NCBI GenBank assembly: GCA_018818205.1
Contig: JAHISJ010000002.1
Coordinates: 3,895-67,894 of the forward strand
From: Patescibacteria group bacterium
Lineage (GTDB): Bacteria; Patescibacteriota; JABMPQ01; JAHIRA01
Length of the DNA: 64,000 nt
Direction: 5' to 3'
Shown in pieces: positions 29,469 through 60,383 of this stretch. The notes under the pieces are model-generated. The model was not told the DNA's origin. It saw nothing but the letters and a program-made list of their open reading frames with translations, and did not search any database. The translations under genes and the position numbers were made by a program. How positions within the stretch are numbered: the first letter of the stretch is position 1; each line of letters starts with the position of its first letter.

Positions 29469-29554
29469 AGGCTCTTGTCAGTGTATATCCTGTGTGATAC
29501 CATGATTTCACAAAGACTTATTTGTCTGTAGAATTGGAATTTGCATATAAATAA

Positions 29555-29742: not shown

Positions 29743-30027
29743 ATGTTTTTAAAAAAACTAACTACAAAAGACATGGGGCTGTTTGGGAGAATAGTTGTTG
29801 GACTTCTGGGTATAGCCTTTGGGGTGTTTTTAGCGTGGAAGCATGAATGGTTCATGAACACGTTTGGCAGGATTGCTACCATTGAGCGTGTTTTTGGCTC
29901 CTTTGGAGGGAATAGGGTCTTTTATATTCTGCTTGGTGTTCTTATTGCCCTTGGCTCTGTTCTTTACATGACAGGGGCCTTGCAAGGAATGCTTTCAGGT
30001 TTTTTTGGGTCGATATTTGGGAGATAA
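29743..30027 (+). CDS. small membrane protein (hypothetical)
   Basis: 94 aa with two or three TM helices, Gly-rich. Confidence 0.4.
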   Translation: MFLKKLTTKDMGLFGRIVVGLLGIAFGVFLAWKHEWFMNTFGRIATIERVFGSFGGNRVFYILLGVLIALGSVLYMTGALQGMLSGFFGSIFGR

Positions 30028-30049
30028 AATTAAAAGAGAATACGATTTT

Positions 30050-30070
30050 GACGCGTAGGCGTCCTTTTTT
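30050..30070 (+). terminator. rho-independent terminator
   Basis: GACGCGTAGGCGTC palindromic hairpin followed by CTTTTTTG. Confidence 0.65.
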
Positions 30071-30179
30071 GTACAGTTTATTTTACAGACTTGCTTTGGT
30101 GTTCGAGCTTTTTTTATTGCTGAACCTAAGGGGAATTGCTACCATAACGATACACGAAGCCTTATTGAATACGTAGAAA

Positions 30180-31834: not shown

Positions 31835-31839
31835 ACAAA

Positions 31840-32208
31840 ATGGCCTTTATATATATTGCAGCGACGTCGCTGATGACAGTAGGGTGTCAGTTACTGCTTA
31901 AGTGGAGAGCTACAAAAGTTAATCTTGAACTTGCCGGTAGCGATGAGAAACTAGCTTTTCTTATTAAAATGATCAAGGATCCTTTGGTAATTTTGGCGTT
32001 TCTTTTGGCACTGGGCGCTTCTGTTTTTTGGATGCTTGCACTTTCACAAAGAATCGAGCTGAGCACAGCGTATTCTTTGACGAGCATGAGTTTCATTATT
32101 ATCTTTATTTCTTCGGTTTTCCTTTTTCATGAGTCAATTAGCATATTAAAAATTATTGGTCTTACCTCAATTATTTTTGGCATTGTAGTACTTAGTAGAG
32201 GGTTATGA
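31840..32208 (+). CDS. small four-TM membrane protein, candidate lipid-linked sugar flippase (GtrA / ArnE-ArnF / EamA-like)
   Basis: 122 aa, four TM helices. GCQLLLKWRA near the N-terminus and a C-terminal IIGLTSIIFGIVVLS EamA-like segment. It sits in the position GtrA occupies in gtrABC cassettes. Confidence 0.55.
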   Translation: MAFIYIAATSLMTVGCQLLLKWRATKVNLELAGSDEKLAFLIKMIKDPLVILAFLLALGASVFWMLALSQRIELSTAYSLTSMSFIIIFISSVFLFHESISILKIIGLTSIIFGIVVLSRGL

Positions 32209-34860: not shown

Positions 34861-34883
34861 AAGTGACAGCTAATAATTAACGT

Positions 34884-35522
34884 ATGCAAGACGAGAGTGG
34901 AGTAAGAAAAATTTTAAATGATGGAGTCTTTTATGATTTTCTGCAGAATATTTTAGGTGCTGGAAAGGCACGAGTATGGCTTGCTGAAAACTATTGGAAT
35001 GTAAAAAAAGGAGACTCTATTATCGATATAGGGTGTGGTACAGGAGAAGTGTTGGACTATCTTGACTTTGATATACAATACACTGGGTTCGACGTTAGTA
35101 AAAAATATATTGATGTAGCTCGAAAGAAATATGGTAACCGTGGAAAGTTCAGTATTGGCACTGCTGAAGAATTTCTAAGAAATCCAAATACATTACCTGA
35201 GGCTGACTTGGTGCTTTGTAATGGCCTGCTTCACCATCTTGAAGATAAAGAAGTAATGCAAGTGCTTGAGCTTTCAAAGGAACTATTGGCAGAAAAAGGA
35301 CGCTTAGTGTGTGTAGAGCCTGTATTTCTAAAAAAACAAACGAAGGCGTCCAAGTGGCTTATGAGTAAGGATAGGGGGCAGAATGTTCGTTCTTTTGATG
35401 AGTGGAATAAAATTGTTGGGAAAATCTTTAATACTTTCTCTCTTGATGTTACTACTGGTCTCATTAGGGCTCCCTATGTTCATGTTATAATTACGTGCAA
35501 TAATGTGCCTGATACTGCATAG
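34884..35522 (+). CDS. class I SAM-dependent methyltransferase
   Basis: Motif I IIDIGCGTGEV, motif II DLVLCNGLLHHL, motif III GRLVCVEP. Confidence 0.75.
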   Translation: MQDESGVRKILNDGVFYDFLQNILGAGKARVWLAENYWNVKKGDSIIDIGCGTGEVLDYLDFDIQYTGFDVSKKYIDVARKKYGNRGKFSIGTAEEFLRNPNTLPEADLVLCNGLLHHLEDKEVMQVLELSKELLAEKGRLVCVEPVFLKKQTKASKWLMSKDRGQNVRSFDEWNKIVGKIFNTFSLDVTTGLIRAPYVHVIITCNNVPDTA

Positions 35523-35579
35523 TAGAAACTCTTGTTAATTAGCGTCTATGTGGTATCCTACTTGTGTATTTGAGTACAT

Positions 35580-35655
35580 GGGCCCGTAGCTCAGTTGGTA
35601 GAGCACTTGTTTTGCATACAAGGGGTCAGCGGTTCGAATCCGCTCGGGTCCACCA
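35580..35655 (+). tRNA. tRNA-Ala (anticodon TGC), CCA encoded
   Basis: GGGCCCGTAGCTCAGTTGGTAGAGCACTTGTTTTGCATACAAGGGGTCAGCGGTTCGAATCCGCTCGGGTCCACCA. G3:U70 identity pair, anticodon loop TTTGCAT; this is the canonical rRNA-spacer tRNA. Confidence 0.95.
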
Positions 35656-35787: not shown

Positions 35788-36891
35788 ATGAAAAATAAAA
35801 ATATACTTATTGTTGCGCTTGTCATTGTTTTTGGACTTATCGTTATTTTAGGACTAAGTTTTGCCTTGTACTCGTCTTTTTATAACAATAAAGCTGACGT
35901 AGCCAAAGAAGATCCTTCTCTTTCTGAAGAACTGATTATTGCAAATTGGGAAGACTACTTTGCCGAAGGAATTATTGAGGATTTTGAAGAAGAATATGGC
36001 GTGAAGGTAGAGCTTGAGACCTACGATAACGAAGAAGACATTTTTTCAGAAGTGCAATCCGATTTATCAAAGTATGACCTCGTTGTTGTAACGGATGTCT
36101 TAGCAGAAGAAATGCAGAGTCTTAAGCTCCTATCGCAGTTGAATTTTACCTATATTCCTAATTATGAAAACATAGATGAGGCTTTTAGCCTTCCGGATTA
36201 CGCTACTCAAGGCGGCTACTTGGTTCCCTATCTTTGGGGTACGACAGGAATAGTGGCGAATACCGAATTTGTCGATGTGAGTAACAGTGGCTGGGAAATG
36301 ATGTGGAATCATGAATATTCCGGAAGGGTGAGCATGCTCAATGACAAGCGTGAAGTGATTGGAGCGGCACTAAAGCTTCAAGGGGATTCATTGAATTCAC
36401 AAGATCCGGATGAGCTTGCACGTGCTGAACAGAAACTGCTTGAGCAAAAAAATCTTGATGTAACCTACCTAGGACCACTAGAAGCTACAGAAAAGATTGC
36501 TGCAGGTGAACTTTGGCTTAGCCAAGTGTATAGTGGCGACGCACTTGACATTATTGATAGTAATCCCGATTTAAATCTTGAATATATTATTCCTGTCGAA
36601 GGAACGGCAATATGGGTAGATAATATGGTAATTCCTCGGGACGCAAAACACAAATATACCGCTGAAACGTTTATAAATTATCTGCTTAGGCCGGAAGTCT
36701 CTGCACGCAATGCAAGTGAACTGTGGTACGCAAATCCAAATACCAAAGCTGAACCACTTATGGACGCCGCAGTTCTTGAGGATACAAACGTGTATCCTCC
36801 ACTTGAAGCATTGGAAAAATCGGAGTACATTCAAAGTGTTGGTGACGCAACGTCGCTTTACAATAAGATTTGGTCATTGCTGCAACAATAA
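35788..36891 (+). CDS. PotD/PotF-family periplasmic polyamine-binding protein homolog (lipid-anchored or TM-anchored)
   Basis: N-terminal TM anchor, then ELIIANWEDYFAEGIIEDFEEEYGVKVELETYDNEEDIFSEV...KYDLVV, matching the PotD N-lobe. No ABC permease or ATPase genes adjacent. Confidence 0.7.
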   Translation: MKNKNILIVALVIVFGLIVILGLSFALYSSFYNNKADVAKEDPSLSEELIIANWEDYFAEGIIEDFEEEYGVKVELETYDNEEDIFSEVQSDLSKYDLVVVTDVLAEEMQSLKLLSQLNFTYIPNYENIDEAFSLPDYATQGGYLVPYLWGTTGIVANTEFVDVSNSGWEMMWNHEYSGRVSMLNDKREVIGAALKLQGDSLNSQDPDELARAEQKLLEQKNLDVTYLGPLEATEKIAAGELWLSQVYSGDALDIIDSNPDLNLEYIIPVEGTAIWVDNMVIPRDAKHKYTAETFINYLLRPEVSARNASELWYANPNTKAEPLMDAAVLEDTNVYPPLEALEKSEYIQSVGDATSLYNKIWSLLQQ

Positions 36892-38138
36892 TGGCTTCAA
36901 AAAATAAAAAAAGAACGCGAATTAGTTTTCGTATCAAATTGAGCCTGGTTTTGTTTATTGTAGGTATACTTCCCCTTATAGTCTTAAGCGTTGTGTATAT
37001 CCGACAAATGCAAAGTGCACTTCTTGAAACAACTAAAAACAGTTTGGAAGATATTGCAAAAACAAAAGGGGCAGAAATTGAACTGTATATTTCTAATAAT
37101 TTACTGGATTTACAGATAGTAGCAAAAAATCCCGTACTGATGTCTTCAGAAAGCTCGCCTGAGGAAATTGAGTCAGAGCTTAAGAAAATCACTGAAATAT
37201 ATTCCACGTTTGATGATCTAAGTGTCGTTAATTTAGATGGTCATGTCATTGCATCAGTTGATCATCGATACCGAGGTGAATGGAGCACTAAACAATGGTT
37301 TATTGATGCACGCGATGGTAACGTATCAATGAGCAATGTTCATACTATTCCAGATCCGCTGAGGACAGTACTTGTGTTTACGGCGCCGGTTTTCAATGAA
37401 CGCAATGAAATACAGTCGGTTGTTGCGTTGCAAATATCTATGGAGGAAGTTTGGAACAGACTCAAAGGTACTCTTACGAGAGAAGGGAGCTATGCAATTC
37501 TTGTTGATGAAAATGGACGAATTCTCTATCACCCCAATCGTGAAGCGCTGTTTAGCGATATATCCCCGGAAATTAAAGGAGCCTCTCAAGAAAATTTTGG
37601 CTTTTTTACATTTGAGCAAGAGGGAGACGAATGGTTTAGTGGGTATCAGACTGTTGGACATGGTACAGCTTTTGGACATGGTCCATGGAAGATTTATATT
37701 GTTGAAAAAAGAGAGGTGGTTTTTAAACTCTTTGAAGAGTTGCAAAATCAAACGATTCTTTTTTTTGTGATTACGAGTATGCTTATGGTGTTTATTGGAC
37801 TTGTGCTGAGTATTTACATAACACGTCCAATTGAAAAATTAAAAAAAGCAACCAAGAAGTATGCTGAAGGTGAGTTTGATTACACAGTAGATATTTATAC
37901 GCGTGATGAGATGCATGATTTGGGTAAGAGTTTTAACGATATGGCGCTACAAATAAAAAAATCCAAAGATTTTCTTGAAAAGGAGGTAGATAGACGAACG
38001 AGTGAGCTACGTGAGAAAAACGCGGAGCTTATGAAGACTAATAAACTCATGGTTGGTCGTGAGCTAAAAATGGTTGAACTTAAAAAAATGGTTCAAGAAT
38101 GTGAAAGAAAAAAGGGCAGCCAAAAAAAACAAAAATAA
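36870..38138 (+). CDS. membrane sensor-like protein: TM - Cache/PDC-like periplasmic domain - TM - HAMP - short coiled coil, no output domain
   Basis: TM1 (LSLVLFIVGILPLIVLSVVYI), roughly 250-aa extracytoplasmic domain, TM2 (ILFFVITSMLMVFIGLVLSIYI), HAMP (TRPIEKLKKATKKYAEGEFDYTVDIYTRDEMHDLGKSFNDMALQI), then about 60 aa of coiled coil. Overlaps the upstream SBP gene by 22 nt. Confidence 0.6.
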   Translation: MVIAATIMASKNKKRTRISFRIKLSLVLFIVGILPLIVLSVVYIRQMQSALLETTKNSLEDIAKTKGAEIELYISNNLLDLQIVAKNPVLMSSESSPEEIESELKKITEIYSTFDDLSVVNLDGHVIASVDHRYRGEWSTKQWFIDARDGNVSMSNVHTIPDPLRTVLVFTAPVFNERNEIQSVVALQISMEEVWNRLKGTLTREGSYAILVDENGRILYHPNREALFSDISPEIKGASQENFGFFTFEQEGDEWFSGYQTVGHGTAFGHGPWKIYIVEKREVVFKLFEELQNQTILFFVITSMLMVFIGLVLSIYITRPIEKLKKATKKYAEGEFDYTVDIYTRDEMHDLGKSFNDMALQIKKSKDFLEKEVDRRTSELREKNAELMKTNKLMVGRELKMVELKKMVQECERKKGSQKKQK

Positions 38139-49250: not shown

Positions 49251-49278
49251 CTCCTCGTAGGCGCGCGCCTACGAGGAG
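49251..49278. repeat. perfect 28-bp GC-rich palindrome (CTCCTCGTAGGCGC|GCGCCTACGAGGAG)
   Basis: Exact reverse-complement symmetry. Preceded by a second small hairpin GGGTG...CACCC (49231-49250). Lies in the intergenic region before the amidinotransferase-fold gene. Confidence 0.9.
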
Positions 49279-49376: not shown

Positions 49377-50324
49377 GTGATAATTTTGAGTTCGCCACAA
49401 GCGTGTGGCCAATTTGGAAAGTTAATTGAACCTGTTAGAGAAAAAGGACTTACTACGTCACGTATTTTGATGGTGAGTCCGGATCACTTTAAAGTGAGTA
49501 AATTCGCTACACAAAATAATGTGTACATGGGGACTGAGGCAGTTGATCCCAGTAAAGCATGGGAGCAGTTCAATGAACTTCTTAGAAAACTTGAAGCACG
49601 AGGTATTGAGGTAAATGTTTTCCCTGGAAAGCCCGGCCAAAGCGATGGCATTTTCCCCAACAACACGTTTGCAACAGTTCGAGGCATTGAAGGACGCAAA
49701 AAACGTGCGCTTATTGGAATGATGTTAAACGAAGATCGTATTCCAGAGAGGGATCAAGAAGATATTCGTGAGTTTTTACGGTCTTCAGGATATGAATTTA
49801 TTGATTTGCAAGAAGATTCCCGTGCGCAGGTAGGCAAGGATTCCGCTGAGCTTACGGGAAGCGTAGTTATTGACCACCGTCGTGATTTTGGGTTTATTGG
49901 TCTTTCTAAGCGGTGTACGTTTATGGGTGCGATGCTGATGGCAGAAGCATTCGGTTTTAATGCGGCACATGTTTTTGAGCTTACTGAGAATGAATATCAT
50001 ACGAACGTAGTTTTGGCTATTTTGGGTGGAAAAGTCTGTGTTATTGCGCCTTCAGGGTTTAAGAATGAAGACGATGCAAAAGCGATTATGGGACAGTACC
50101 AACACGTTATTCATCTCACCGAAGAGCAAAAGAATCATTTTTGTGGTAATATGCTTGCGCTTGGTGATAGTCACGTGTTTCTCTCGCATGAAGCATGGAT
50201 ATGGCTGAGGGGTGATCAGAGAGATGCGCTTAAAGAAGCTGGGTTTACCGTGAACATGGTTGATATTTCTGAACTCGAAAAAGGCGGCGGTTCCATGCGT
50301 TGTCTTCTCTGCGAACTTTGGTAA
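49377..50324 (+). CDS. amidinotransferase/DDAH/ADI-superfamily hydrolase (guanidino-group modifying enzyme)
   Basis: 315 aa. C-terminal catalytic-Cys motif GGGSMRCLLCEL as in DDAH/ADI-fold enzymes. GTG start preceded by AGGAGGA. Confidence 0.6.
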   Translation: MIILSSPQACGQFGKLIEPVREKGLTTSRILMVSPDHFKVSKFATQNNVYMGTEAVDPSKAWEQFNELLRKLEARGIEVNVFPGKPGQSDGIFPNNTFATVRGIEGRKKRALIGMMLNEDRIPERDQEDIREFLRSSGYEFIDLQEDSRAQVGKDSAELTGSVVIDHRRDFGFIGLSKRCTFMGAMLMAEAFGFNAAHVFELTENEYHTNVVLAILGGKVCVIAPSGFKNEDDAKAIMGQYQHVIHLTEEQKNHFCGNMLALGDSHVFLSHEAWIWLRGDQRDALKEAGFTVNMVDISELEKGGGSMRCLLCELW

Positions 50325-50473: not shown

Positions 50474-51745
50474 ATGGAGAAAAGACACGATGGTCTGTTC
50501 TCCGAAACAGGCCGTATTAATGAAGTAGTAGTATATGCGCCAGGAAAAGCGCATGAATTGATGGTGCCGGAACATATTATTGATGAGATTGAAGATGAAA
50601 ATGGGAAAAAGGTAGAAAATCCTGAGTATTGTCTTTTTGATGATATTATTGACCCCTTTGCTGCGACCGAGGAACATAGGGTTATGTCCGAAGTTATTGG
50701 TCAAGTTGGTCAAGTTATATACATGGACGATTTGCTTTTGAGAACCCTTAAGAACAGAGATTTAACAGGAAGAATTATTGAACGAGTCGGTGAAATTGAA
50801 GAACTTTCTCAAGAACAAGTTGATAGACTTTTAGAAATTCGAGATGCCAGGGCTCTTCTTCGTACCTTGGTTACAGGGAAGCTCAACGGTGAAATCGAAA
50901 AAGAACAATTCTTTTTGCCTGCACCAAACTTCATGTTTACTCGTGATGTTGCTGCGTGTGTGGGTGAGGCTGTAGTGGTATGCCATGCCTCAAAACCTGC
51001 AAGGCGTCGTGAAATGGCGCTTACAGGATTTGTAGTAAGAAACCACCCATTGTTTCATGGAAGGAAGATTATTGATATTAAAGAGATTGACCCCAATTCC
51101 AAAGAAACAATCGAAGGGGGCGATATTTTGGTTGTTGACCACACGACTGTTCTTATTGGCATTTCTCAAAGAACAACACAAAAAGCTGCACTTATGATTG
51201 CCAATGAGCTCAGAAAGCCCATTTTTGGGTTCAAAAACATTTTTGGCGTAAAGCTTCCGGAACAAAGGTCCAGCATGCATCTGGATACTACATTCACCCT
51301 TCTTTCTGAAAAGAAGGTTATGGTTTTTGGACCAGTTATTCTTGAAGGATGTACACTTTTTGATCTTTGTGCAGATTGCCAGCTGGAAGAGGAGAGCCTT
51401 ATTGATCTTTTGCACAAGATGGGTAAAATTGTTGATCCCATTTTGTGTGGTGGTGGATGTCCCATGGCTGCTCAGCGCGAGCAGTGGAGTGATGGTGCGA
51501 ACCTTTTTGCTATTGGACCGGGAATCGTCATTGGGTACGAGCGAAATCGCAGGACGACTGCAGAACTTGTGAAAAATGGCTTTAGGCATACGCCTGCAGA
51601 GGAAATTTTGCAACATCCAAATTGGTTTCAAAGTCGAGTAAACTCTGGAGATGAGCTCATCGTTACGTTCCGTGGTGCAGAGCTTTCTCGTGGACGAGGT
51701 GGGGCTCGTTGTATGACGATGCCACTCTCACGTATTGAAGAGTAG
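50474..51745 (+). CDS. arcA: arginine deiminase
   Basis: N-terminal FSETGRINEVVVYAPGKAHE and C-terminal catalytic RGGARCMTMPL. Length 423 aa. RBS GAGAGGAGG. Confidence 0.8.
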   Translation: MEKRHDGLFSETGRINEVVVYAPGKAHELMVPEHIIDEIEDENGKKVENPEYCLFDDIIDPFAATEEHRVMSEVIGQVGQVIYMDDLLLRTLKNRDLTGRIIERVGEIEELSQEQVDRLLEIRDARALLRTLVTGKLNGEIEKEQFFLPAPNFMFTRDVAACVGEAVVVCHASKPARRREMALTGFVVRNHPLFHGRKIIDIKEIDPNSKETIEGGDILVVDHTTVLIGISQRTTQKAALMIANELRKPIFGFKNIFGVKLPEQRSSMHLDTTFTLLSEKKVMVFGPVILEGCTLFDLCADCQLEEESLIDLLHKMGKIVDPILCGGGCPMAAQREQWSDGANLFAIGPGIVIGYERNRRTTAELVKNGFRHTPAEEILQHPNWFQSRVNSGDELIVTFRGAELSRGRGGARCMTMPLSRIEE

Positions 51746-51793: not shown

Positions 51794-53647
51794 ATGACTG
51801 TGAAAAAAGCAGTAAGCCTGGTTACCATACCAGAGGTATTTGAGGCATTTATTCGTGAACAACTTAAAGTAGTTTTTGGCATTAAAGATGCAGAGATTAA
51901 AGTAGAACGGCCACCTAATGAGATGTTGGGAGACTTTGCTGCTCCACTTCATTCATTGGCAAGAGTTCTGAAGAGGGCTCCCAAGCTCATTGCACAGGAA
52001 TTTATTGAGAAATCAAAAGAAGAAGTTCCTCCGTGGATTCAATCCTATTTTGATACAAACGGTTATGTGAATATGACCGTTGCTCCAGCGTTTATCGCTG
52101 AGCAAATTTTTGGTGATCTTGAGGCATTTATGACTGTTTCGCATCTAAGACCGGAGACAGCAGGGCAGAAAATTATGGTTGAATCTCCTTCGCCCAACAC
52201 CAATAAACCATTTCATCTTGGGCATATCAGAAATGGACTTTTGGGATCCGCGATAGTACGCTTGCTTCGGTTCCTGGGGTTTGACGTTATTGCAGCAAAT
52301 CTCTTGAATGACCGTGGTATTCATATTTGTAAATCGATGATTGCGTATGAGCGGCAGTACAATGGGCAAACACCCGAATCGATTGGTTTAAAAGGTGATC
52401 ATTTTATTGGAAAGTGCTATGTACTTTTTGAAACGTGGATTAAGCTTGAATTAAAAGAACTTTTTAAAAAGAAATACGGAGCTGATCCAGATGTAGAATT
52501 TGATGATGTTAAAGATGAACTACTTAGAGAATCAAAGCTTCAACAAGAAGCACTTGTTATGCTTAAAAAATGGGAAGAAGAGGATCCTGACGTTCGGAAA
52601 TTGTGGAAAGAGCTTGATGGGTGGGTGGTTTCTGGCTTTGAAGAGACTCTTGCGCGTCTTGGAATTTCACATGACAAGGTTTATCGAGAGAGTGATACCT
52701 ATACTTTAGGTAGGAAAATTATTGAACAAGGACTTGCAAAGGGGCTCTTTAAACGGCGTGAAGACGGTGCAGTAATTATTGATCTCTCAAGCCATGGTTT
52801 TGATCCCAAGGTGCTCTTACGTCCAGACGGGACAACAGTTTATATGACTCAAGATATTGGTACTGCAGAGCTTAAAGAGGAAGATTTTGGTCTTAGGCGC
52901 TCAATTTATGTGGTCGCCAATGAACAAGATCATCACTTTAAGGTCTTGTTTAAAATTCTTGAGCTTCTTGGATATTCATGGGCAGGAGGGCTCTACCACC
53001 TCTCATACGGGATGGTGGAATTGCCTGAAGGCCGTATGAAATCACGCGAAGGAACTGTGGTTGATGCAGATGACTTAATGGAAGAAGTCGTTGCATTGGC
53101 GCGAGAGGTAACGGGAGTTAAATTTGCTGAGCGGAAGCAGGATATTTCTGAAGAAGAGCTTGATGTCATCGCAGAAAAGCTTGGCATTGGTGCTCTCAAA
53201 TTCCATTTTCTCTTGGCACGTCCAGAGAGCAGAATCAAATTTAATCCGGCAAAGGCTGTTACATTTGAAGGGAAAACGGGACCATTTGTGTCTTACGTTT
53301 TTGCGCGGATTCATAGCATGCTTACAAAGGGTAGCTTTGATTCAAGTGCTTCAATTGACACTGGAGTTCTTGCTCAGCCGGTTGAACGATCACTTCTTAT
53401 GAATCTTGCAGGCTTTCAGACAGTTGTTTTGCGAGCTGCTGACGAGCTTGATCCGTCGCTTATTGTTGATTATGTTTTTAAGTTGGCACAAGCATTTAAC
53501 TCTTTCTACAATACTAGAGAGTGTAAAGTTCTTAGTGCAGACACAGAAGAACTTAAAAACGCTCGGCTTATGCTGAGCTTTGTTACCGCCCGTGTTATTG
53601 AAAAATGCATGGATCTCTTGGGCATTCAGGTGCCAAAGCGGATGTAG
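51794..53647 (+). CDS. argS: arginine--tRNA ligase
   Basis: Class I HIGH motif (PNTNKPFHLGHIRN), anticodon-binding DALR domain at the C-terminus. 617 aa. Confidence 0.93.
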   Translation: MTVKKAVSLVTIPEVFEAFIREQLKVVFGIKDAEIKVERPPNEMLGDFAAPLHSLARVLKRAPKLIAQEFIEKSKEEVPPWIQSYFDTNGYVNMTVAPAFIAEQIFGDLEAFMTVSHLRPETAGQKIMVESPSPNTNKPFHLGHIRNGLLGSAIVRLLRFLGFDVIAANLLNDRGIHICKSMIAYERQYNGQTPESIGLKGDHFIGKCYVLFETWIKLELKELFKKKYGADPDVEFDDVKDELLRESKLQQEALVMLKKWEEEDPDVRKLWKELDGWVVSGFEETLARLGISHDKVYRESDTYTLGRKIIEQGLAKGLFKRREDGAVIIDLSSHGFDPKVLLRPDGTTVYMTQDIGTAELKEEDFGLRRSIYVVANEQDHHFKVLFKILELLGYSWAGGLYHLSYGMVELPEGRMKSREGTVVDADDLMEEVVALAREVTGVKFAERKQDISEEELDVIAEKLGIGALKFHFLLARPESRIKFNPAKAVTFEGKTGPFVSYVFARIHSMLTKGSFDSSASIDTGVLAQPVERSLLMNLAGFQTVVLRAADELDPSLIVDYVFKLAQAFNSFYNTRECKVLSADTEELKNARLMLSFVTARVIEKCMDLLGIQVPKRM

Positions 53648-53670
53648 CTACTTCCAAAAATTATTTATCA

Positions 53671-53705
53671 CCACAAAATCTAAAAAGGTTTTGTGGTTTT
53701 TTTTA
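53671..53705. terminator. bidirectional rho-independent terminator between the convergent argS and methyltransferase genes
   Basis: CCACAAAA-TCTAAAAAGG-TTTTGTGG hairpin flanked by T-rich (plus strand) and A/T-rich (minus strand) runs. Confidence 0.55.
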
Positions 53706-54434
53706 TGTACGTTTTTCTCCAATACCGATCATATGACGTGCAAATTCTGCAGGTATGGTATTACAAAAGGAGGTTTCTTTTTCTAAAAAATGTATTAATT
53801 GTTTCAATGATAGATTGCGCCGCGTATCAATAACTGTTGAAAAGCGATTATACGTATTCAAAAAATAGTTAATGCCAACCACAGAAATGCTTTCTAAGGG
53901 AGAGAGTAATTTTTTAAGCATTGCGGAGGTGTAGAATATTTTTTTTATTTCTTTATTTAAAGCCGTGCTATCGTCTATAATTTCTAGCTTATATTGGACT
54001 CTCTTGGTGTATGGCATGAGGGCAATATAACCATTTGGCTTTACCACTCTTATAATTTCTGTAATAAGTTTTTTTGGAGACAACGAATAAGACAGAGGAC
54101 CGTATAGGCTGACGACTGAATCAAAGGTGTTGCATTTAAAAGGTAAATTGTGCATATCTCCAGTGATGAATCTTTTTTTTGGATATTTTTTATTTGAAAG
54201 GTTAACCATCTCGTGTGATAGTTCGATGCCAGTGTAATTATCAATGTCTAACATTTCACAGAGAAGTCCATTTCCTGAACCAATATCTAGCACTTTACCT
54301 GTAGCAATAGGTTTTAATATTTTTGATATAATAACGTCTTCAGCTTTGCAAATAAAAGACGAGTATGTTTTATCATAATCCAATGCTTTGGAATCATAGT
54401 AACGGCGAAGCTGATTTAATTTTTCTTTGTTCAT
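53703..54434 (-). CDS. class I SAM-dependent methyltransferase
   Basis: Motif I VLDIGSGNGLL and a downstream acidic loop (DIDNYTGIE), Rossmann MTase fold. Confidence 0.75.
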   Translation of the reverse strand: MNKEKLNQLRRYYDSKALDYDKTYSSFICKAEDVIISKILKPIATGKVLDIGSGNGLLCEMLDIDNYTGIELSHEMVNLSNKKYPKKRFITGDMHNLPFKCNTFDSVVSLYGPLSYSLSPKKLITEIIRVVKPNGYIALMPYTKRVQYKLEIIDDSTALNKEIKKIFYTSAMLKKLLSPLESISVVGINYFLNTYNRFSTVIDTRRNLSLKQLIHFLEKETSFCNTIPAEFARHMIGIGEKRT

Positions 54435-54447
54435 TTGTTTTGCTTTT

Positions 54448-55638
54448 CTATTTAAACCACTCTTTTGCTATAGAAAAATATACCTCTGGCGCCTTGTTAA
54501 GTTCAGTAATATTTATACGTTCATCTGCCACGTGGCTGTACTTAGGATTGCCTGGCCCATATTCATTTATTGTCTTAAATCCTGCATTCCCCCAAAAAGG
54601 CGCATCATTAGCACCAGGGGTTGCAAATGATTGAGGGGCTTTATTGAGCATTTTTTTCACTCCTCTTTTGAATATATCCAAAACGGGGTCGTCATCATGA
54701 AGTGCGTGTCCGGGAACGGGCGGGTGAAGATAGTTATGTGAAATTTTAAAGCCGGATTCCTTATGCTCTAAAAGAAATCGTTTTAATTCATCATTAAGTA
54801 AATAGAATTGGTTTGCAAAAAGAATGGGCCCCACACGACAATCAAATGTTGCAGTCGCAGTAGCGGGAAGACTATTTGGTTTTGCGGGGACAATATTGCT
54901 ATCAATAATCCCAAGATTAGACTCAAGGGTGGTGAGAGTAATGGTGTGTGTGTTAAACGCGTGCTCCGGATATTTTTTGTTTAGTGTTTTTTCGAGCGAG
55001 CTTATATCTGAAATGATAGCCGCAAGTTTTACTGCTGCATTTTTTCCCTGATGAGATCTTGACGCATGTGCACTTTTTCCGGTGATAGTCACTGTTATAA
55101 ATGCATTTCCTTTGTTACCAATAGAAAAATGTCTAAGACCAGTAGGCTCACCGACAATAACAAGAGTCTCTTCAAGGATGGGTTTTATTTTTTCTGTGAG
55201 ATAGGGAACAAGCGCTTCTGTTCCAGCGCCACTTGTTTCTTCGTGCGATACGAGAGCAACAATCATGCGATACTCTTTCGCAAGTTCACTTTTAGAAAAT
55301 GCAAGAAGAGTATGTAACATACTTGCACCGATACCTTTTGCATCGTTTGCACCAAGTCCAAAGAGATATCCATCATGCTCATGAGGATCGAACGGTTTTG
55401 TTTCTTTCCAGCCTTGTGGCTCAGGTACGACCGTGTCTAAATGCGTGGTCAAAATAATAGTCCGCGGTCCCTTTCCGGAAGAAAGGAAAATATTGGTTAA
55501 CCCCTTTTTTTCTTGAATAGTTTGTGAAATATGGTGTTCTTTTCCCCAACTTTTAACAAATTTCATAATTGCATCCTCGTTTCCCGAGGTGCTGGGGATG
55601 GAGATGAGTTGTTTTGCGAGGGTTGTTGGTGTCATCAT
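54448..55638 (-). CDS. M20-family metallopeptidase/deacylase (ArgE/DapE-like)
   Basis: HLDTV (His ligand), GANDAKG (Asp), SHEETSG (Glu-Glu), and the C-terminal His region. Confidence 0.8.
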   Translation of the reverse strand: MMTPTTLAKQLISIPSTSGNEDAIMKFVKSWGKEHHISQTIQEKKGLTNIFLSSGKGPRTIILTTHLDTVVPEPQGWKETKPFDPHEHDGYLFGLGANDAKGIGASMLHTLLAFSKSELAKEYRMIVALVSHEETSGAGTEALVPYLTEKIKPILEETLVIVGEPTGLRHFSIGNKGNAFITVTITGKSAHASRSHQGKNAAVKLAAIISDISSLEKTLNKKYPEHAFNTHTITLTTLESNLGIIDSNIVPAKPNSLPATATATFDCRVGPILFANQFYLLNDELKRFLLEHKESGFKISHNYLHPPVPGHALHDDDPVLDIFKRGVKKMLNKAPQSFATPGANDAPFWGNAGFKTINEYGPGNPKYSHVADERINITELNKAPEVYFSIAKEWFK

Positions 55639-55678
55639 CTACTAGTACGCTAGCATAAAATAGAAAAAAAGAAAAATA

Positions 55679-56749
55679 TTAGGCTGGTACTCCGAGCCCA
55701 AAACCTGTAGGAATCTCAATATCAAAATCGTGATATACGAGCCCCTTGCTCATATTTGAATCAATTCTATCTGGTCTGGTAAGATCATAGCACATAAAAT
55801 CGCCAAGTGTCGCAGCGTGTAAATTGTATGCAGTGCCAATTGACGAGTGTATCATATCTCCTAATACGTATTGGATGCTATTATTCTTGCAATATTCTAT
55901 CATACGTTTAGTTTCAAGCAGCCCTCCTGTCTTTGCGAGCTTAATATTGATCATATCTATGGCACATACTCTGTGCAGATTTTTTAGGTCAAAAAGAGTA
56001 TGACAGCTCTCATCTGCCATGAGACTAACAGGAAGTTCCTTTTTTAGTGCTGCAAAGGCTTCAAAGTTGTGTGCACTAAATGGTTGTTCGAGCCATGCGA
56101 TGTTTTCTGGATTTATTTTTGAGATAAAACCAAGCGCCTCTTTTGGTGTATTCCACGCCTGATTTGCGTCAAAGATAAGTTTGATGTCAGGAAATGCAGA
56201 AGCAATGGTAGCTATGGTCTCTTTTTCTGCGTTTTCATCTCCGCCTACTTTAAGTTTAATGTAAGGAACATTTTTTGAAAGCGCATCAGCAATAGAATCA
56301 ATTAAACCAGAACTTTCTTGATCCTCAAAGGAAAGTGTTTTGATAGTAGTGACTGAGTCTTTCTTTTTTCCTCCAAGGAGCTCAAAAATAGGCTTATTTA
56401 CTTTTTTACCAAGAGCATCAAGAAGCGCTGATTCAATAGCGGTTTTTATTCCGGTGTTACCATAAAGCTCTGATTCAAGATCAGACAAGATACTTTGGAC
56501 GTCTTGAACTGAATTCAACTTCTTATCTTCTATTACGTCTCGAACTAACGTGACGGCTTCTATGCTTCCTGCCTGTGTTTCGCCAGTCACATCCCACGCA
56601 AGCGCTGCCTCACCGTTTCCTTGTATGCTTTCATCTGTCTGAGTAGTGATGAGCGTGTAAGGTAGAGTGGTAAGCGTGAGCGTATGATAAGAAAACGGTT
56701 TTTTAAGACCAATACTATATGGTTTTGCGGATATATGCTTTATTTCCAT
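55679..56749 (-). CDS. enolase-superfamily enzyme (dipeptide epimerase / MR-MLE-like)
   Basis: KLKVG (KxK), IFDANQAW (Asp), WLEQP (Glu), LMADES (Asp), NIKLAKTGG (Lys). Pattern of L-Ala-D/L-Glu epimerase-like members. Confidence 0.75.
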   Translation of the reverse strand: MEIKHISAKPYSIGLKKPFSYHTLTLTTLPYTLITTQTDESIQGNGEAALAWDVTGETQAGSIEAVTLVRDVIEDKKLNSVQDVQSILSDLESELYGNTGIKTAIESALLDALGKKVNKPIFELLGGKKKDSVTTIKTLSFEDQESSGLIDSIADALSKNVPYIKLKVGGDENAEKETIATIASAFPDIKLIFDANQAWNTPKEALGFISKINPENIAWLEQPFSAHNFEAFAALKKELPVSLMADESCHTLFDLKNLHRVCAIDMINIKLAKTGGLLETKRMIEYCKNNSIQYVLGDMIHSSIGTAYNLHAATLGDFMCYDLTRPDRIDSNMSKGLVYHDFDIEIPTGFGLGVPA

Positions 56750-56752
56750 GAT

Positions 56753-57877
56753 TTAGAACGATTTTAATCCCGTTCCTGTAATAATCAGCGCAACTTTTTT
56801 AAGATTCAGATCACGGCATTTCTCTAACGCTGGAAATACAGATGCCGCAGTTGGCTCAATACAAAGTGCTTCTTTTTTTAAAGCAATTGCATTCCACGTT
56901 TTAATTTCACTGTCGGTTACTTCAATAACGGTACCGTTTGTTTTTTTGAGCGCGTTAATCGCTTTTGGGGAACAGTAGCTTTCAAGGGCTACAATACCTT
57001 CGGCAATAGAATCTTCAATGTCATCTAATATTTCATAATCTGTGTCGTTCTTTAAAGCCATTGCGATGGGTGCGGCATTTTTAACTTGTATTCCAATGAG
57101 CTTTGGATATGACTTAAGAGCGCCTGATTCCTTCATTTTTTGCATGCCATTAAAGATTCCTGAAAGTAATGACCCGTTTCCCATAGGAACTACAATTGCA
57201 TCAACAAAACCAATATCATGAACAATTTCCGGACAAATACTCTCATCTCCCAGTTCTCTAAAGGGGTTTTGCCCGGCGGAAACATGAAATGGCGCATGCT
57301 GGTCATCAACGACCTTTCTGTATACATCTTCAAAAAAGCCATCAATGAAATGAATTACCCCGTTAAATTTTTTGATGAGACGTATTTTTTCTTTAGATGT
57401 TTTTTTGGGAATAAAGCAATGACACGCAATGTCTGCTTTTAAAGCGTAGGCTGCCGCAGAAAGCGCGGCGTTTCCGGAAGAGATAACAGAAACCTCTTTT
57501 TTACCTAAAAGTTTTGCAACGTTTATGGCGACTTCACTTTCTCTATCTTTAAATGACCCTGTCGGATTAAAATGTTCACATTTAGCGTATACTTCCGGTA
57601 TGTCTACTAAACGGGAAACATGATGAAGCACGACTGTAGGGGTTTTAAAAAGACCGAGAGTAACCCATGGGGCTCCCGCTTCTCCTTGTATGGTTTCAAG
57701 ACTTACAGTAGGAATAAAATAATCATAATAAGGAGTGGTGGAGCAACATTTTGGCAGGCGACCAGTATAGGTGAATTCTTTGTTGCAGGTGATACATTGT
57801 ATTGTAAAAGTCATTTTATTGACAAAAAAGTAATAAAGACATACAGTCATTATATGGATCACGACACAGTTAGTCAA
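56753..57877 (-). CDS. threonine-synthase-like PLP-dependent enzyme (Trp-synthase beta superfamily) with N-terminal zinc-ribbon
   Basis: PLP-Lys motif NPTGSFKDRE, Gly-rich loop, N-terminal CITCNKEF...CC. The likely start is MTFTIQ at 57814. Confidence 0.7.
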   Translation of the reverse strand: MTNCVVIHIMTVCLYYFFVNKMTFTIQCITCNKEFTYTGRLPKCCSTTPYYDYFIPTVSLETIQGEAGAPWVTLGLFKTPTVVLHHVSRLVDIPEVYAKCEHFNPTGSFKDRESEVAINVAKLLGKKEVSVISSGNAALSAAAYALKADIACHCFIPKKTSKEKIRLIKKFNGVIHFIDGFFEDVYRKVVDDQHAPFHVSAGQNPFRELGDESICPEIVHDIGFVDAIVVPMGNGSLLSGIFNGMQKMKESGALKSYPKLIGIQVKNAAPIAMALKNDTDYEILDDIEDSIAEGIVALESYCSPKAINALKKTNGTVIEVTDSEIKTWNAIALKKEALCIEPTAASVFPALEKCRDLNLKKVALIITGTGLKSF

Positions 57878-57985
57878 AGCATTTTTCTGAATCGTAGAAC
57901 CTAAAGGACTCGCAGTTATAGTCTTTATTTTTAGTGATAAAGCCTATATAGCGAGTTTTTTTGCGCTTTTTGGTTAGGAGGAAGT

Positions 57986-58534
57986 ATGAGAATAATAGAA
58001 GCAGGCCATTATTACCAGGCCCACGGCCCGACTGAATTTTCAAAGTTGGGCTGGGGAATATTAGTGCGGTTGTTAACGGAAGAAGACAAAGCACTTTTAT
58101 GGATTGACGATGTACATAGTTTAAAAGATGTACCAAAACAAGAAAAGAAAATGGATGTTGTTGAATTTGACCCAAGAACCCATTTTCGTCTACTTGAATC
58201 AGCTATGGTTCCGTATGCTCGGAAAATTTTTGATCGGTTGATGCTGCTTCCTAAAAGAAAAAAACCAAGGAAGCGCAAAGATGGCGGTTGGAGCTTAAAC
58301 GGAGACATTCGACTCTTTTGGCCGGACGGAATGCCTACTTGTGTGATGCTGGATGCGGGACTTTCGCTTTGGAAACTAGAGCAAGGATTTAAAGTAGGTA
58401 TTAATATTCTTCCTGCATTCTACGGAGAACAACAACAATCGCTCTTAAAAATATTAGGCAAAGCGCTCCCAGAATTTGATCAACAAGTGGTATTGTTTGA
58501 TGTGGAAGGAGGCTATTATTTCATGGAAAAATGA
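57986..58534 (+). CDS. hypothetical protein
   Basis: 182-aa ORF on the opposite strand inside the minus-strand cluster. Contains a basic patch KRKKPRKRK. No family recognised. Confidence 0.35.
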   Translation: MRIIEAGHYYQAHGPTEFSKLGWGILVRLLTEEDKALLWIDDVHSLKDVPKQEKKMDVVEFDPRTHFRLLESAMVPYARKIFDRLMLLPKRKKPRKRKDGGWSLNGDIRLFWPDGMPTCVMLDAGLSLWKLEQGFKVGINILPAFYGEQQQSLLKILGKALPEFDQQVVLFDVEGGYYFMEK

Positions 58535-58682
58535 ATAGAAAAATTTGATGGAAGACGCAAAAAGCATCTTCCTTTTTTTTATGGAAAGATTTTTTTGCAA
58601 AGAAAAAGGCACACATAACTATGTGTGCTCAGTAAAATCATTCCATACGTTTTTGTCAGCAATAGCGCTATTTTATTTAGCC

Positions 58683-59936
58683 TTAGTCGTTTTCTATCCA
58701 AGCGCTTGTAACAGCCATGTACATCAAAACCGCTTCAGCCATCTCAGAAATACTATTCCACTCATCGGGAATGTGATTCCTGTGTCTGTCCCCTGGTCCA
58801 AATTCATTAATAGTGTCAAAACCAGCTTCGCCCCAGAAGAACGCGTCGTTTGCACCGGTGGAAATATGCATCTTAGCACGGTTGCCGGACTTTTCAAGAA
58901 CTACCTGCTCGAGTGTTCGTGCTGCTTTTCCTTCTGTGTCGGTAACATGACCTTCCACAGGGGAATGCAAAAAATTAACGTCTGCCGTAAAACTTTCATG
59001 AAGTGATTTTTGAACATGTTCTTCTAGTAGCTTTGCAAAAAGTGCGAAGTTATCAACAAAAAGCGGCTCACCCATTCTGCAATCTAAAATAACTGTTGCG
59101 GTATTTGGAATAGTGTTGGGTTTTGCTGGGACAATTTCTCCATCGGTAAAAATCAGATTTGAATTCAATCCTGTAACTGAGATTGTCGGTTTTCCAAGAA
59201 CAGGATCAGTGTAGTCTCTTATTAGTATTTCTTCAAAAGTAGAGATAGAATGTACAATCGAGCAAGTTTCTGCTGCTGCGTTTAGACCACGTTCAGGTGT
59301 TGATCCGTGACAGCTCTTACCGTGAATAGTTATTTTAATAAAAGCATTACCCTTATTGGCACAGGTGTATCCATCAAGACCGGTCGGCTCACCAACAATA
59401 ACCATGGTTTTTTGAGGATCTATCACCAGCTCTTTCAAATGGTCTTTAAAATAGTCAGCAGTAATCCGAGAGCCAAGTCCACTGGTTTCCTCCTGGGAAA
59501 CCAGCGCAACAATAATACGTCCGTGTTTTGCGGCTTCTGTGATTGCAAAATGTTTTGCAGCAAGCATCATTGAGACTGCAATACCGGTTGCGTCATTGGA
59601 CCCAAGTCCGTAAAGCCTGTCATCAACCACTTTGGGAGAAAAGGGATCAGTGACGGTCCATTTCTTCGGAGAGGGAACAACAGTATCAAGATGTGTGGTA
59701 AGAATAAGCGTGGGTCCAGTCGGCTCCCCAACTGCAAATGAAATGTTTACTGATCCATCCTTTTCTATCTTAACCGGAGAACAGTTCAAATTGTTGGAAA
59801 CCCAAGTAAGTACTGCTTCAATAACGTTAGCTTCGTTTCCAGAGGTGCTTGGGATAGCAATGAGCTTAGAACAAAGCTCAGTCACTTCCCTTTGGATTTC
59901 AAATGACATTATTCCTCCTAGATATAAAAAAAGCAC
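58683..59936 (-). CDS. M20-family metallopeptidase/deacylase (second paralog)
   Basis: HLDTVVP, GSNDATG, SQEETSG motifs. The likely start is MSFEIQ at 59909. Confidence 0.8.
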   Translation of the reverse strand: MLFLYLGGIMSFEIQREVTELCSKLIAIPSTSGNEANVIEAVLTWVSNNLNCSPVKIEKDGSVNISFAVGEPTGPTLILTTHLDTVVPSPKKWTVTDPFSPKVVDDRLYGLGSNDATGIAVSMMLAAKHFAITEAAKHGRIIVALVSQEETSGLGSRITADYFKDHLKELVIDPQKTMVIVGEPTGLDGYTCANKGNAFIKITIHGKSCHGSTPERGLNAAAETCSIVHSISTFEEILIRDYTDPVLGKPTISVTGLNSNLIFTDGEIVPAKPNTIPNTATVILDCRMGEPLFVDNFALFAKLLEEHVQKSLHESFTADVNFLHSPVEGHVTDTEGKAARTLEQVVLEKSGNRAKMHISTGANDAFFWGEAGFDTINEFGPGDRHRNHIPDEWNSISEMAEAVLMYMAVTSAWIEND

Positions 59937-59990
59937 ACATAGCGCATGCTTAATGAAGTGTAACAGTAAATGGATTATTGTAAATAGCTA

Positions 59991-60383
59991 TCAAATAGTG
60001 GGATTATACTCGCCAAACTTTTTGCCACGTTCGACAACAGTCACCTCAACCTCAGCAAAACCAAAAAATTCTTGAGTAAAAGCAACAATAGCATCCACAG
60101 GAATATCCGTTTTACACGTGGCAATGTCTATCATGACAAACCCTCGCTCGTCAAAAGTATGGATCGCAATGTGGCTTTCACTAATGACAGTAACACCTGT
60201 CACGCCACCTCTGTCTTTTTCTGAGACTGGTTTTGCGACAAGATTGTGGGGTCCAAAAAGTACGTTCATGCCACACAGGCGCGTAGCTTCCAATTGATAT
60301 TCGGTGATTGCCTCAGTATCACAAAACAATGCGTTGTTTCCCCCATAACAATCAAGAATAATGTGTAAACCGAAAAATGACAT
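59991..60383 (-). CDS. speH: pyruvoyl-dependent S-adenosylmethionine decarboxylase proenzyme, SpeH-type (AdoMetDC / arginine decarboxylase family)
   Basis: FGLHIILDCYG and the self-cleavage site ISESHIAIHTFDE...DIATCK characteristic of the SpeH family. The start is taken at MSFFG, so the track ORF is shortened. Confidence 0.75.
   Translation of the reverse strand: MSFFGLHIILDCYGGNNALFCDTEAITEYQLEATRLCGMNVLFGPHNLVAKPVSEKDRGGVTGVTVISESHIAIHTFDERGFVMIDIATCKTDIPVDAIVAFTQEFFGFAEVEVTVVERGKKFGEYNPTI

Follow-up and report, generated by a model that had tools for sequence, protein, structure and literature searches.

We analyzed an island of seven genes in a 64,000-nt stretch of contig JAHISJ010000002.1 from an ultra-small Patescibacteria group bacterium (assembly GCA_018818205.1), hereafter the window, whose numbering is used for all positions given without a locus name. 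The island encodes a methyltransferase, an M20-family deacylase (M20-A), a protein of the enolase superfamily, a fold-type-II pyridoxal phosphate (PLP) enzyme that resembles threonine synthase (ThrC) and is called PALP1 here, a 182 amino acid protein (the orphan), a second M20 deacylase (M20-B) and a pyruvoyl decarboxylase of the SpeD type. An earlier interpretation made from the DNA alone (the sequence-only reading) had listed these genes with these family assignments, and an open reading frame (ORF) check combined with a Pfam scan confirmed all seven at the coordinates it gave (Table 1). The PLP enzyme, the orphan and the enolase-superfamily protein are each 100% identical to deposited proteins (locus tags KKH43_00450 and KKH43_00460).

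Table 1. Genes of the island and its neighbours in the window, with the matches on which their assignments are based.
Feature	Coordinates	Strand	Matches and remarks
Methyltransferase	53703-54434	-	Pfam Methyltransf_11 (6e-18); last gene of the predicted PALP-enolase-M20 operon
M20-A	54448-55638	-	Pfam Peptidase_M20 (9e-26) and M20_dimer; ArgE/DapE-type metallo-deacylase
Enolase superfamily (MLE subgroup)	55679-56749	-	Pfam MR_MLE_C (2e-37) and MR_MLE_N
Fold-type-II PLP enzyme PALP1 (ThrC-like)	56753-57814	-	Pfam PALP (8e-56)
Divergent PALP1/orphan intergenic region	57815-57985		12-nt inverted repeat; hexamers resembling promoters on each strand
182 amino acid orphan (putative mini-ArgRS)	57986-58534	+	No Pfam or NCBIfam match
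M20-B	58683-59936	-	Peptidase_M20 (7e-22); ATG at 59909
SpeD-like pyruvoyl decarboxylase	59991-60383	-	AdoMet_dc (7e-23); GTG extension to 60440
argS, full-length arginyl-tRNA synthetase	51794-53647	+	Recurrent neighbour
Arginine deiminase-family gene (ADI)	50474-51745	+	Pfam ADI (1e-62); context gene, recurrent neighbour
DDAH/CtlX-like guanidino-group hydrolase	49377-50324	+	DDAH_eukar (1.4e-40); CtlX model 131 versus cut-off 334

Neither the seven proteins nor the adjacent arginine deiminase (ADI) and DDAH/CtlX-like proteins reach the cut-off of any NCBIfam orthologue model, which marks the seven as divergent members of their superfamilies rather than ThrC, DapE, ArgE, L-Ala-D/L-Glu epimerase (AEE), MenC or SpeD. 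The seven genes thus do not belong to housekeeping orthogroups, the alternative that the sequence-only reading had named (for example DapE with dapABDF nearby). No dapABDF or argBCD genes were found among the window ORFs scanned, and no thr or men pathway genes lie nearby. The scanned ORFs likewise include no SpeE, agmatinase, ornithine carbamoyltransferase or carbamate kinase.

The island occupies the minus strand of an otherwise plus-strand window, and the GC skew dips to match. Its minus-strand genes are separated by 13 nt (methyltransferase/M20-A), 40 nt (M20-A/enolase), 3 nt (enolase/PALP1) and 54 nt (SpeD-like/M20-B). A terminator-like hairpin at 58628-58609 ends the unit formed by the SpeD-like gene and M20-B, and a bidirectional one (53670-53697) lies between the methyltransferase gene and argS. 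Spacing and consensus sites suggest three transcription units, namely the SpeD-like gene with M20-B, the divergently oriented orphan, and PALP1-enolase-M20-A-methyltransferase; co-transcription of M20-B with the SpeD-like gene is thereby also suggested. The promoter-like hexamers are consensus matches only, and their number in the block equals chance expectation. In the divergent stretch with promoter-like sites that separates PALP1 from the orphan, an inverted repeat at 57917-57948 (TATAGTCTTTAT ... ATAAAGCCTATA, 12-nt arms and an 8-nt spacer) is a candidate operator.

The orphan, which the sequence-only reading had taken as an interruption of the block, is the anchor of the island and its most conserved part. 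A homologue of the orphan adjoins the PALP1 homologue in all nine contexts in which the latter was found (the window and loci L001-L005, L007, L106 and L107), over which the identity of the PLP enzyme declines from 65% to ~42%; no other gene is as strongly conserved beside the PLP enzyme. At L106 (7339-9080), the orphan-family gene (221 amino acids) and the start of the PALP1 gene share 4 nt, and argS is not nearby, indicating that the pair moves as a unit independently of argS. An exhaustive profile search recovered 187 representative clusters of the family at E<=1e-3 and 34 at <=1e-30, with proteins of ~170-250 amino acids. Neither Pfam nor NCBIfam has a model for the family, no source checked gives it a name, and a Pfam search of 48 members gave no recurring family, two members having one isolated weak match each.

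To place the orphan structurally, we used AlphaFold2 (AF2) models and Foldseek. The model of the orphan (pLDDT 95, pTM 0.90) has a five-stranded alpha/beta core, and arginyl-tRNA synthetase (ArgRS) structures lead its matches in the Protein Data Bank (PDB; 3fnr with an E-value of 1e-5, 6ao8, 1bs2, 4q2t and 4zaj), followed by CysRS, TrpRS, TyrRS, GlnRS and MshC, with PP-loop argininosuccinate synthases lower. A second model, built for a family member 41% identical to the orphan (pLDDT 79), returned ArgRS for all of its top 10 matches; across the two models, 3fnr was matched with E-values of 1e-5 and 3e-5. A search of the orphan-family profile against PDB sequences gave no match at E <= 10.

Once Ins-1 of ArgRS is deleted, the alignment of the orphan with ArgRS runs from end to end, and the 182 residues of the orphan match in length the ArgRS Rossmann core minus Ins-1, the Add-1, Ins-1/CP and anticodon-binding parts all being absent. 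The aligned motifs are E-A-G-H with H-L-G-H (the HIGH motif), I-D-D with L-N-D, E-S with E-S, and P-D-G with P-D-G. In addition, C119-x3-D123-x6-K130 of the orphan matches Y350-x3-D354-x6-K361 in the ArgRS used for the alignment and Y313-x3-D317-x6-R324 in E. coli ArgRS, with identical spacing. In the E. coli enzyme, D317 forms a salt bridge with the guanidinium group of arginine and R324 supports D118. D317 aligns with D123 of the orphan, R324 with K130 and Y313 with C119, and the counterparts of D118 (possibly E5) and Q341 (Q150, at an offset of 3) are uncertain. The HIGH motif is degenerate (E5-A-G7-H8, with Glu for the first His), and the chain ends before the position of KMSKS. The invariant residues of the family are mostly acidic (E5, D41, E71 and D123), a composition that would be more in keeping with a basic ligand than with ATP chemistry. 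We consider it quite probable that the orphan is an ArgRS-core-like paralogue, for which we use the name mini-ArgRS, and argS is the likely evolutionary source of the family. Such a family appears to be undescribed: a review of aminoacyl-tRNA synthetase (aaRS) paralogues mentions none of ArgRS (PMC9437257), and literature searches on ThrC-like or ArgRS-like paralogues in candidate phyla radiation (CPR) bacteria returned nothing relevant.

A scan of a genome collection with an alignment of five orphan sequences (A1) added 15 orphan loci, from Magasanikii-, Komeili-, Nomura-, Kaiser- and Saccharibacteria, Paceibacterota and other Parcubacteria, and the gene content of all loci was mapped by phmmer and HMM searches. 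Among the 25 orphan loci, the adjacent gene encodes an asp_race-type racemase in 14, a ThrC-like enzyme in nine (the window included) and neither in two. Thirteen of these loci have argS within 6 kb and nine have ADI, and genes for an M20 or AstE deacylase and for ArgA-like AAK-GNAT proteins are frequent. Both catalytic cysteines are retained in the asp_race partners, whose scores exceed the TIGR00035 cut-off. A further contig, the one that encodes protein P0125, has the order argS, orphan, Asp_Glu_race, M20 and PvlArgDC (pyruvoyl arginine decarboxylase). Finally, P0266, a 586 amino acid protein from a 3.6-kb ENA contig, combines a Peptidase_M15 domain (VanX-like D-Ala-D-Ala dipeptidase) with a C-terminal orphan domain (residues 400-579), a fusion that would link the orphan family to D-amino-acid dipeptide chemistry.

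One Kaiserbacteria locus (L018, 4760-10254 of JALWJR010000053.1) has the order Lyase_1 (argininosuccinate-lyase-like), asp_race, orphan, AstE/AspA deacylase, methyltransferase and YbaK-type aminoacyl-tRNA editing domain; the proximity of an editing factor of this type to a mini-aaRS is intriguing. At two further loci (L006, 4475-7628; L007, 12369-14099), an AMP-binding gene (FadD-like acyl-CoA ligase) lies downstream of the orphan, the racemase or PLP enzyme, the M20 gene and the ArgA-like gene, and may provide acyl donors for capping. L006 also contains an unannotated gene encoding 422 amino acids.

The mechanical ORF of PALP1 extends to position 57877, and its homologues begin at MTFTIQC. 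PALP1 has a predicted N-terminal Cys4 Zn ribbon (C7, C10, C23 and C24), and its PLP lysine is K89 in SFK89D. Its best NCBIfam matches are threonine synthases, all far below cut-off (151 versus 358; 110.9 versus 167.1 for TIGR00260, thrC), followed by threonine/serine ammonia-lyases and beta-hydroxyaspartate dehydratase (86 bits for the dehydratases), and its best PDB match is the ThrC structure 6cgq (1.7e-29). PALP1 has the motif AEG..A.ESY..P in common with PALP2, the ThrC-like enzyme of the enolase operons described below; ThrC lacks this motif and reads T-I-A-T-A-I-x-I-G. PALP1 and PALP2 are sister clades of one CPR ThrC-like subfamily. Of the six phosphate ligands of Thermus thermophilus ThrC, three are presumably substituted in PALP1. 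No homoserine kinase or homoserine dehydrogenase gene was found among the window ORFs scanned or at the nine PALP1 loci. Two roles were considered and set aside. The SSGN sequence as a second base of the serine racemase type was dropped, since SSGNA also occurs in archaeal-type ThrC-like proteins outside the clade, and a gamma-lyase acting on canavanine (O-guanidino-homoserine), although attractive on chemical grounds, was not backed by any observation.

The homologues of the enolase-superfamily protein form a clade found only in CPR bacteria, with 40-51% identity inside the clade and ~30% outside it. The catalytic residues that the sequence-only reading had proposed to look for are all present on alignments, in this protein and in both M20 proteins: K165, K167, D194, E221, D246 and K270 (K-x-K/D/E/D/K) are invariant across 18 members of the enolase clade. 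The example substrate it had offered, an L-Ala-D/L-Glu dipeptide, is not supported. D322-L-T324 is invariant in the clade, where dipeptide epimerases read D-x-D, as do 1jpm, 3jva, 3q45 and 3r0k. In the AEE of B. subtilis, D321 and D323 hold the dipeptide's alpha-ammonium and R24 of the capping loop binds the side-chain carboxylate of Glu; neither D323 nor R24 has a conserved equivalent here, the former being Thr throughout the clade and no Arg being found at the position aligned with the latter. The best NCBIfam model is nonetheless that of an L-Ala-D/L-Glu epimerase (NF041118, E = 4e-46), with a score of 157.6 against a cut-off of 500 (NF011708, 96.8 against 343). The best PDB match is 2p88 (1.8e-35 with the single sequence and 7e-71 with the clade profile), which reads E-L-T in place of D-L-T and corresponds to BC0371, an N-succinyl-Arg/Lys racemase (reviewed in PMC2948282). 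The enolase-superfamily protein is best described as a predicted racemase or epimerase resembling N-acyl-amino-acid racemases.

We examined 14 enolase loci, the window and 13 others. In 11 of them the enolase gene is part of an operon with the order PALP2 (ThrC-like, with Zn ribbon), a GNAT-like protein of ~220 amino acids or a pre-ATP-grasp protein of ~410 amino acids, enolase, and M20 or AstE/AspA deacylase; at L033, an asp_race gene takes the place of the PLP enzyme. argS lies within 6 kb of the enolase gene in seven of the 14 loci, and ADI, DDAH-like, ArgA-like (above its cut-off) and ArgE-like genes are often present as well, an AdoMetDC-like gene being seen once. The DDAH-like gene of the window was seen again at L004, L024 and L033. 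The functional module proposed by the sequence-only reading thus stands in a general sense: ThrC-like enzymes, the enolase clade and M20 or AstE deacylases occur together in distant CPR lineages, beside argS, ADI and DDAH-like genes, whose recurrence there also bears out its link to arginine metabolism. The exact block of seven genes does not recur. In the nearest relatives, whose PLP enzymes are 65% and 48% identical to PALP1, the genes for the enolase, M20-A, M20-B and the methyltransferase are missing, so the complete block is lineage-specific. The window is the only one of the 25 orphan loci that joins the orphan cassette to the enolase cassette, and it is also unusual in its duplicated M20 gene and its added methyltransferase.

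In M20-A, the metal and base residues are H66, D99, E133/E134, E164 and H369, and the protein aligns to ArgE (7rsf) and 3ct9. M20-B, a paralogue 43% identical to M20-A, has the same set of di-metal ligands and general base. Both fall short of the TIGR01910 cut-off of 217.6 (168 for M20-A and 148 for M20-B), and all DapE and ArgE equivalogs are far below theirs. The methyltransferase is a class-I S-adenosylmethionine-dependent enzyme whose nearest models methylate carboxyl or small-molecule groups. One close homologue was seen, at L018 (9014-9775, 265 bits), 1.3 kb from the orphan/racemase pair.

The SpeD-like protein has the E69|S70 cleavage site, H75 and C90 at the spacing of S63, H68 and C83 in T. 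maritima S-adenosylmethionine decarboxylase (AdoMetDC). The sequence-only reading had called it a decarboxylase of the SpeH type and had raised the choice between AdoMetDC and arginine decarboxylases. Three observations speak against a SpeH-type AdoMetDC: its score lies just under the SpeD equivalog cut-off (TIGR03330, 72.2 versus 75.65), SpeE is absent from the ORFs scanned, and HTFDE replaces the HTWPE of the bona fide T. maritima enzyme, the Pro being lost. We assume this Pro to be the one that Li et al. call 'gamma'. The latter is common to all genuine AdoMetDCs and lost in derivatives that decarboxylate arginine (Li et al., 2023; PMC10407285), and neofunctionalized SpeD proteins that act as arginine and ornithine decarboxylases are common in CPR bacteria (PMC10407285). 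Given the loss of this Pro, an arginine or ornithine decarboxylase is more likely than an AdoMetDC, and the protein is probably a neofunctionalized enzyme of this kind. An orthologue adjoins the orphan at L001, and PvlArgDC takes that place in the P0125 contig.

Taking into account the gene families, catalytic residues and synteny shown here, together with the fold of the orphan in AF2 models, we propose that the island carries out stereo-inversion and deacylation of arginine-family compounds by a 'cap-invert-uncap' route, combined with decarboxylation (probability about 0.4). The block would be a lineage-specific joining of two cassettes that recur beside argS across Patescibacteria. One of them would pair the ArgRS-core orphan of ~180 amino acids with a partner that changes stereochemistry, mostly an asp_race protein with two cysteines and here the ThrC-like enzyme. 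The other would cap the amino group, invert the alpha-carbon with the enolase resembling N-acyl-amino-acid racemases, and remove the cap with M20 or AstE; inversion could also be performed by the racemase or PLP partner. Capping would fall to the GNAT or ATP-grasp protein in the relatives and possibly to mini-ArgRS here, and the product of the SpeD-fold decarboxylase would be agmatine or putrescine. Arginine would be consumed by the neighbouring ADI and DDAH/CtlX-like hydrolase, and by ArgRS. The island may thus convert D- or N-acylated compounds of the arginine or ornithine type, scavenged from a host or the environment, into usable L-forms for ArgRS, ADI and polyamine synthesis, or operate in reverse. 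In this scheme, mini-ArgRS would be the component that recognizes arginine, either as a HisZ-like specificity or regulatory subunit of its partner or as the missing capping ligase. More specifically, the orphan and its racemase or ThrC-like partner might form a two-gene system, kept across Patescibacteria, in which a free-standing ArgRS core recognizes arginine or an isomer of it and either ligates it to an acceptor, as in EpmA/EpmB, or gates the partner allosterically, as in HisZ/HisG; we offer this only tentatively, as one possibility.

Several observations weigh against this proposal. The sequence-level relationship of the orphan to ArgRS is weak: hhalign of the orphan family against CPR ArgRS places orphan residues 60-161 on ArgRS residues 288-393 with P = 0.004-0.009 and a probability of only 5-9%, and BLASTP finds the same register at E = 0.23. 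In the hhalign controls, reversal gave P = 0.4-0.7, and one of 40 column shuffles scored equally well. The change of Tyr313 to Cys, the replacement of the first His of HIGH by Glu and the absence of KMSKS make an ATP-dependent ligase activity doubtful. Among the enolase loci with upstream sequence, the window alone has no GNAT or ATP-grasp gene, and thus no capping enzyme (the other GNAT gene of the window, at 31124-31834, was rejected for this role, being unrelated to the cassette GNAT). Arginine chemistry suggests no role for the ThrC-like enzyme. The nearest relatives have only the orphan and PALP1, with or without the SpeD-like gene, beside argS and ADI, so that the enolase, M20 and methyltransferase genes may be an independent addition. 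Since enzymes that would feed ArgRS and enzymes that destroy arginine (ADI) are both nearby, the closeness of argS may have to do with regulation and not with a pathway in common. An ARG-box search gave four matches where ~10 are expected by chance, and an Rfam scan near the block found no riboswitch and no T-box. Finally, we infer the substrates of all seven proteins, and with them the arginine-family substrate of the pathway, its direction, what the PLP enzyme and the methyltransferase do, and that the orphan binds a ligand.

In the main rival reading, the genes form a biosynthetic or modification system: D-Arg or some other non-canonical isomer or analogue is produced by the partner and then joined by mini-ArgRS, as an ATP-dependent ligase, to a small molecule, cell-wall precursor, protein or RNA, and the enolase, M20 and methyltransferase enzymes tailor or recycle the product. 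The combination of an aaRS paralogue that lacks tRNA-binding domains with an amino-acid isomerase has direct precedents (PMC9437257); those invoked here are EpmB and EpmA acting on EF-P, MshC, GluQRS, and the enterococcal operon of D-Asp ligase and aspartate racemase. The tight coupling or overlap of the orphan gene with its partner gene, the P0266 fusion to a VanX-like M15 D-Ala-D-Ala dipeptidase, the ATP-grasp ligases that fill the equivalent operon slot in relatives, a conserved methyltransferase suited to tailoring and the YbaK-type aminoacyl-tRNA editing gene in the L018 cluster all agree with it. We nevertheless regard it as less likely than our proposal, with a degenerate HIGH motif, no KMSKS and no acceptor candidate conserved across loci. 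ArgRS itself needs tRNA for arginine activation, which counts against a ligase of this kind, and the deacylases and ADI indicate catabolism or salvage over synthesis. If the route were instead one of energy-yielding catabolism, the inversion enzymes would feed D- or hydroxy-amino acids to a ThrC-like dehydratase or lyase, with ammonia and a 2-oxo acid as its products, in parallel to the ADI route. CPR bacteria are fermenters that rely on scavenged substrates, the ADI and DDAH-like genes are adjacent, and ammonia-lyases and a dehydratase are the next NCBIfam matches of the PLP enzyme. The latter is, however, clearly closer to ThrC (151 versus 86 bits), no downstream enzymes acting on 2-oxo acids are conserved at the loci, and mini-ArgRS is left unexplained, which together make this route improbable.

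Still less probable is the peptide salvage of the sequence-only reading, taken as the recovery of peptidoglycan peptides with an epimerase of the L-Ala-D/L-Glu type, M20 dipeptidases and spermidine synthesis through a true AdoMetDC. It draws on the best NCBIfam model of the enolase (E = 4e-46), on the ability of M20 enzymes to act as dipeptidases, and on the Pfam AdoMet_dc match with intact processing residues; yet the AEE model is matched at 158 against a cut-off of 500 with D323 and R24 not conserved, the genes nearby are argS, ADI and DDAH-like, ArgA-like and ArgE-like ones rather than genes of murein recycling, and the SpeD-like protein has the sub-threshold score and missing HTWPE Pro described above, with no SpeE among the scanned ORFs. 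The gene density of CPR genomes, and the absence of four of the seven genes from the nearest relatives, would also be compatible with a chance juxtaposition of housekeeping genes (threonine synthase, DapE/ArgE, MenC/OSBS-like, SpeD and methyltransferase) in a compact genome. This explanation we consider the most remote of all, as no protein reaches any equivalog cut-off, the same combinations of families recur in the same order in many distant CPR lineages, and genes of the thr, dap and men pathways are absent from the neighbourhood.

CPR bacteria are unable to synthesize amino acids and are presumed to depend on hosts. If the stereo-inversion and deacylation proposal is correct, a conserved argS-linked toolkit of enzymes that invert, deacylate and decarboxylate arginine-type compounds would show how these bacteria secure a key nutrient and energy source. 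If either form of the two-gene system is right, no ArgRS paralogue outside translation would precede mini-ArgRS, and no natural class-I aaRS-like protein with its own function would be smaller. Mini-ArgRS would also give the study of aaRS evolution a natural test case for the abilities of a bare class-I catalytic core. The work also defines a protein family lacking annotation, which comprises 187 representative clusters and has an obvious partner to test, and corrects likely mis-annotations in CPR genomes as 'threonine synthase', 'L-Ala-D/L-Glu epimerase', 'DapE' and 'AdoMetDC'.

Other features of the window were also recorded. The PotD-like sensor pair mentioned in the sequence-only reading is present at 35788-38138, as a gene for a solute-binding protein (SBP_bac_8) followed, with a 22-nt overlap, by a gene for a dCache/HAMP membrane sensor. 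Within the region 27401-35655, a 16S rRNA gene (27401-28986) and tRNA-Ile (29556) are followed ~6 kb on by tRNA-Ala (35580), with protein genes between the two tRNA genes that include GT2, GNAT and a DegT-type aminotransferase. No 23S rRNA gene was found within the 64-kb window, so the rRNA operon is split or unlinked. An rve-family integrase with HTH domains on the minority strand (8322-9269, minus) is probably part of an insertion sequence. Between clpP and the DDAH/CtlX-like gene lies a perfect 28-bp GC-rich palindrome (49251-49278; CTCCTCGTAGGCGC/GCGCCTACGAGGAG); with no T-run, it may serve as an operator or as a terminator of unusual form.

Compared with known systems, the orphan resembles the truncated aaRS paralogues HisZ, EpmA/PoxA, GluQRS/YadB and MshC, and the engineered class-I 'urzymes', in consisting of the catalytic core alone with no anticodon-binding domain, and it resembles the natural paralogues in being encoded beside functionally linked genes. 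At ~180 amino acids it is roughly the size of a urzyme and much smaller than the natural truncated paralogues, from which it also differs in its degenerate HIGH motif, its lack of KMSKS and its partner, a racemase or ThrC-like enzyme. The SpeD-like protein has in common with SpeDA (arginine decarboxylase) and SpeDC (ornithine decarboxylase) the class-1b AdoMetDC fold, the self-processing Ser, His and Cys, the occurrence in CPR bacteria, the missing HTWPE Pro and the want of a SpeE partner among the scanned ORFs, but its gene is clustered with M20 and not with speY, hss or speE (PMC10407285).

PALP1 shares with archaeal-type threonine synthase and cysteate synthase the fold type II, the SFKD lysine motif, SSGNA, NPxR and an N-terminal CxxC ribbon. 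It differs from threonine synthase in scoring below every ThrC cut-off, at less than half of the best one (151/358), and in having mini-ArgRS, not thrB or hom, as its obligatory neighbour. The enolase-superfamily protein belongs to the same subgroup as the dipeptide epimerases YkfB (1jpm/1tkk) and those of Enterococcus (3jva) and Cytophaga (3q45), and has their fold, catalytic residues and first Asp (the D321 equivalent); the change of D323 to Thr and the missing R24 equivalent throughout the clade, and a context free of murein recycling, set it apart from them.

The closest likeness is to the BC0371 pathway, which turns D-amino acids into L-forms by way of their N-succinyl derivatives. BC0371 is said to be encoded in a B. 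cereus operon with a GNAT N-succinyltransferase and an M20 desuccinylase, and a counterpart reportedly exists in Geobacillus kaustophilus. The enolase-superfamily protein of the window is likewise of the MLE subgroup with a full K-x-K/D/E/D/K set and Thr at the second beta-8 position, and BC0371 is its best structural-sequence match. An M20 gene is present in the operon (M20-A, 40 nt downstream), M20 or AstE occurs in 11 of the 14 loci, a GNAT-like gene lies directly upstream in CPR relatives, and the Arg/Lys preference of BC0371 fits the arginine-centred neighbourhood. In contrast to BC0371, the CPR enzymes form a separate clade at only ~30% identity, the window has no GNAT gene and its relatives have either a GNAT-like or an ATP-grasp gene, a ThrC-like enzyme always heads the CPR operon, and an AstE-type deacylase can stand in for M20. 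The logic of capping, inverting and uncapping is already known, as is the neofunctionalization of SpeD; the CPR enolase clade, with its obligatory ThrC-like partner, its alternative ATP-grasp cap and its linkage to argS, is a new variant of that logic.

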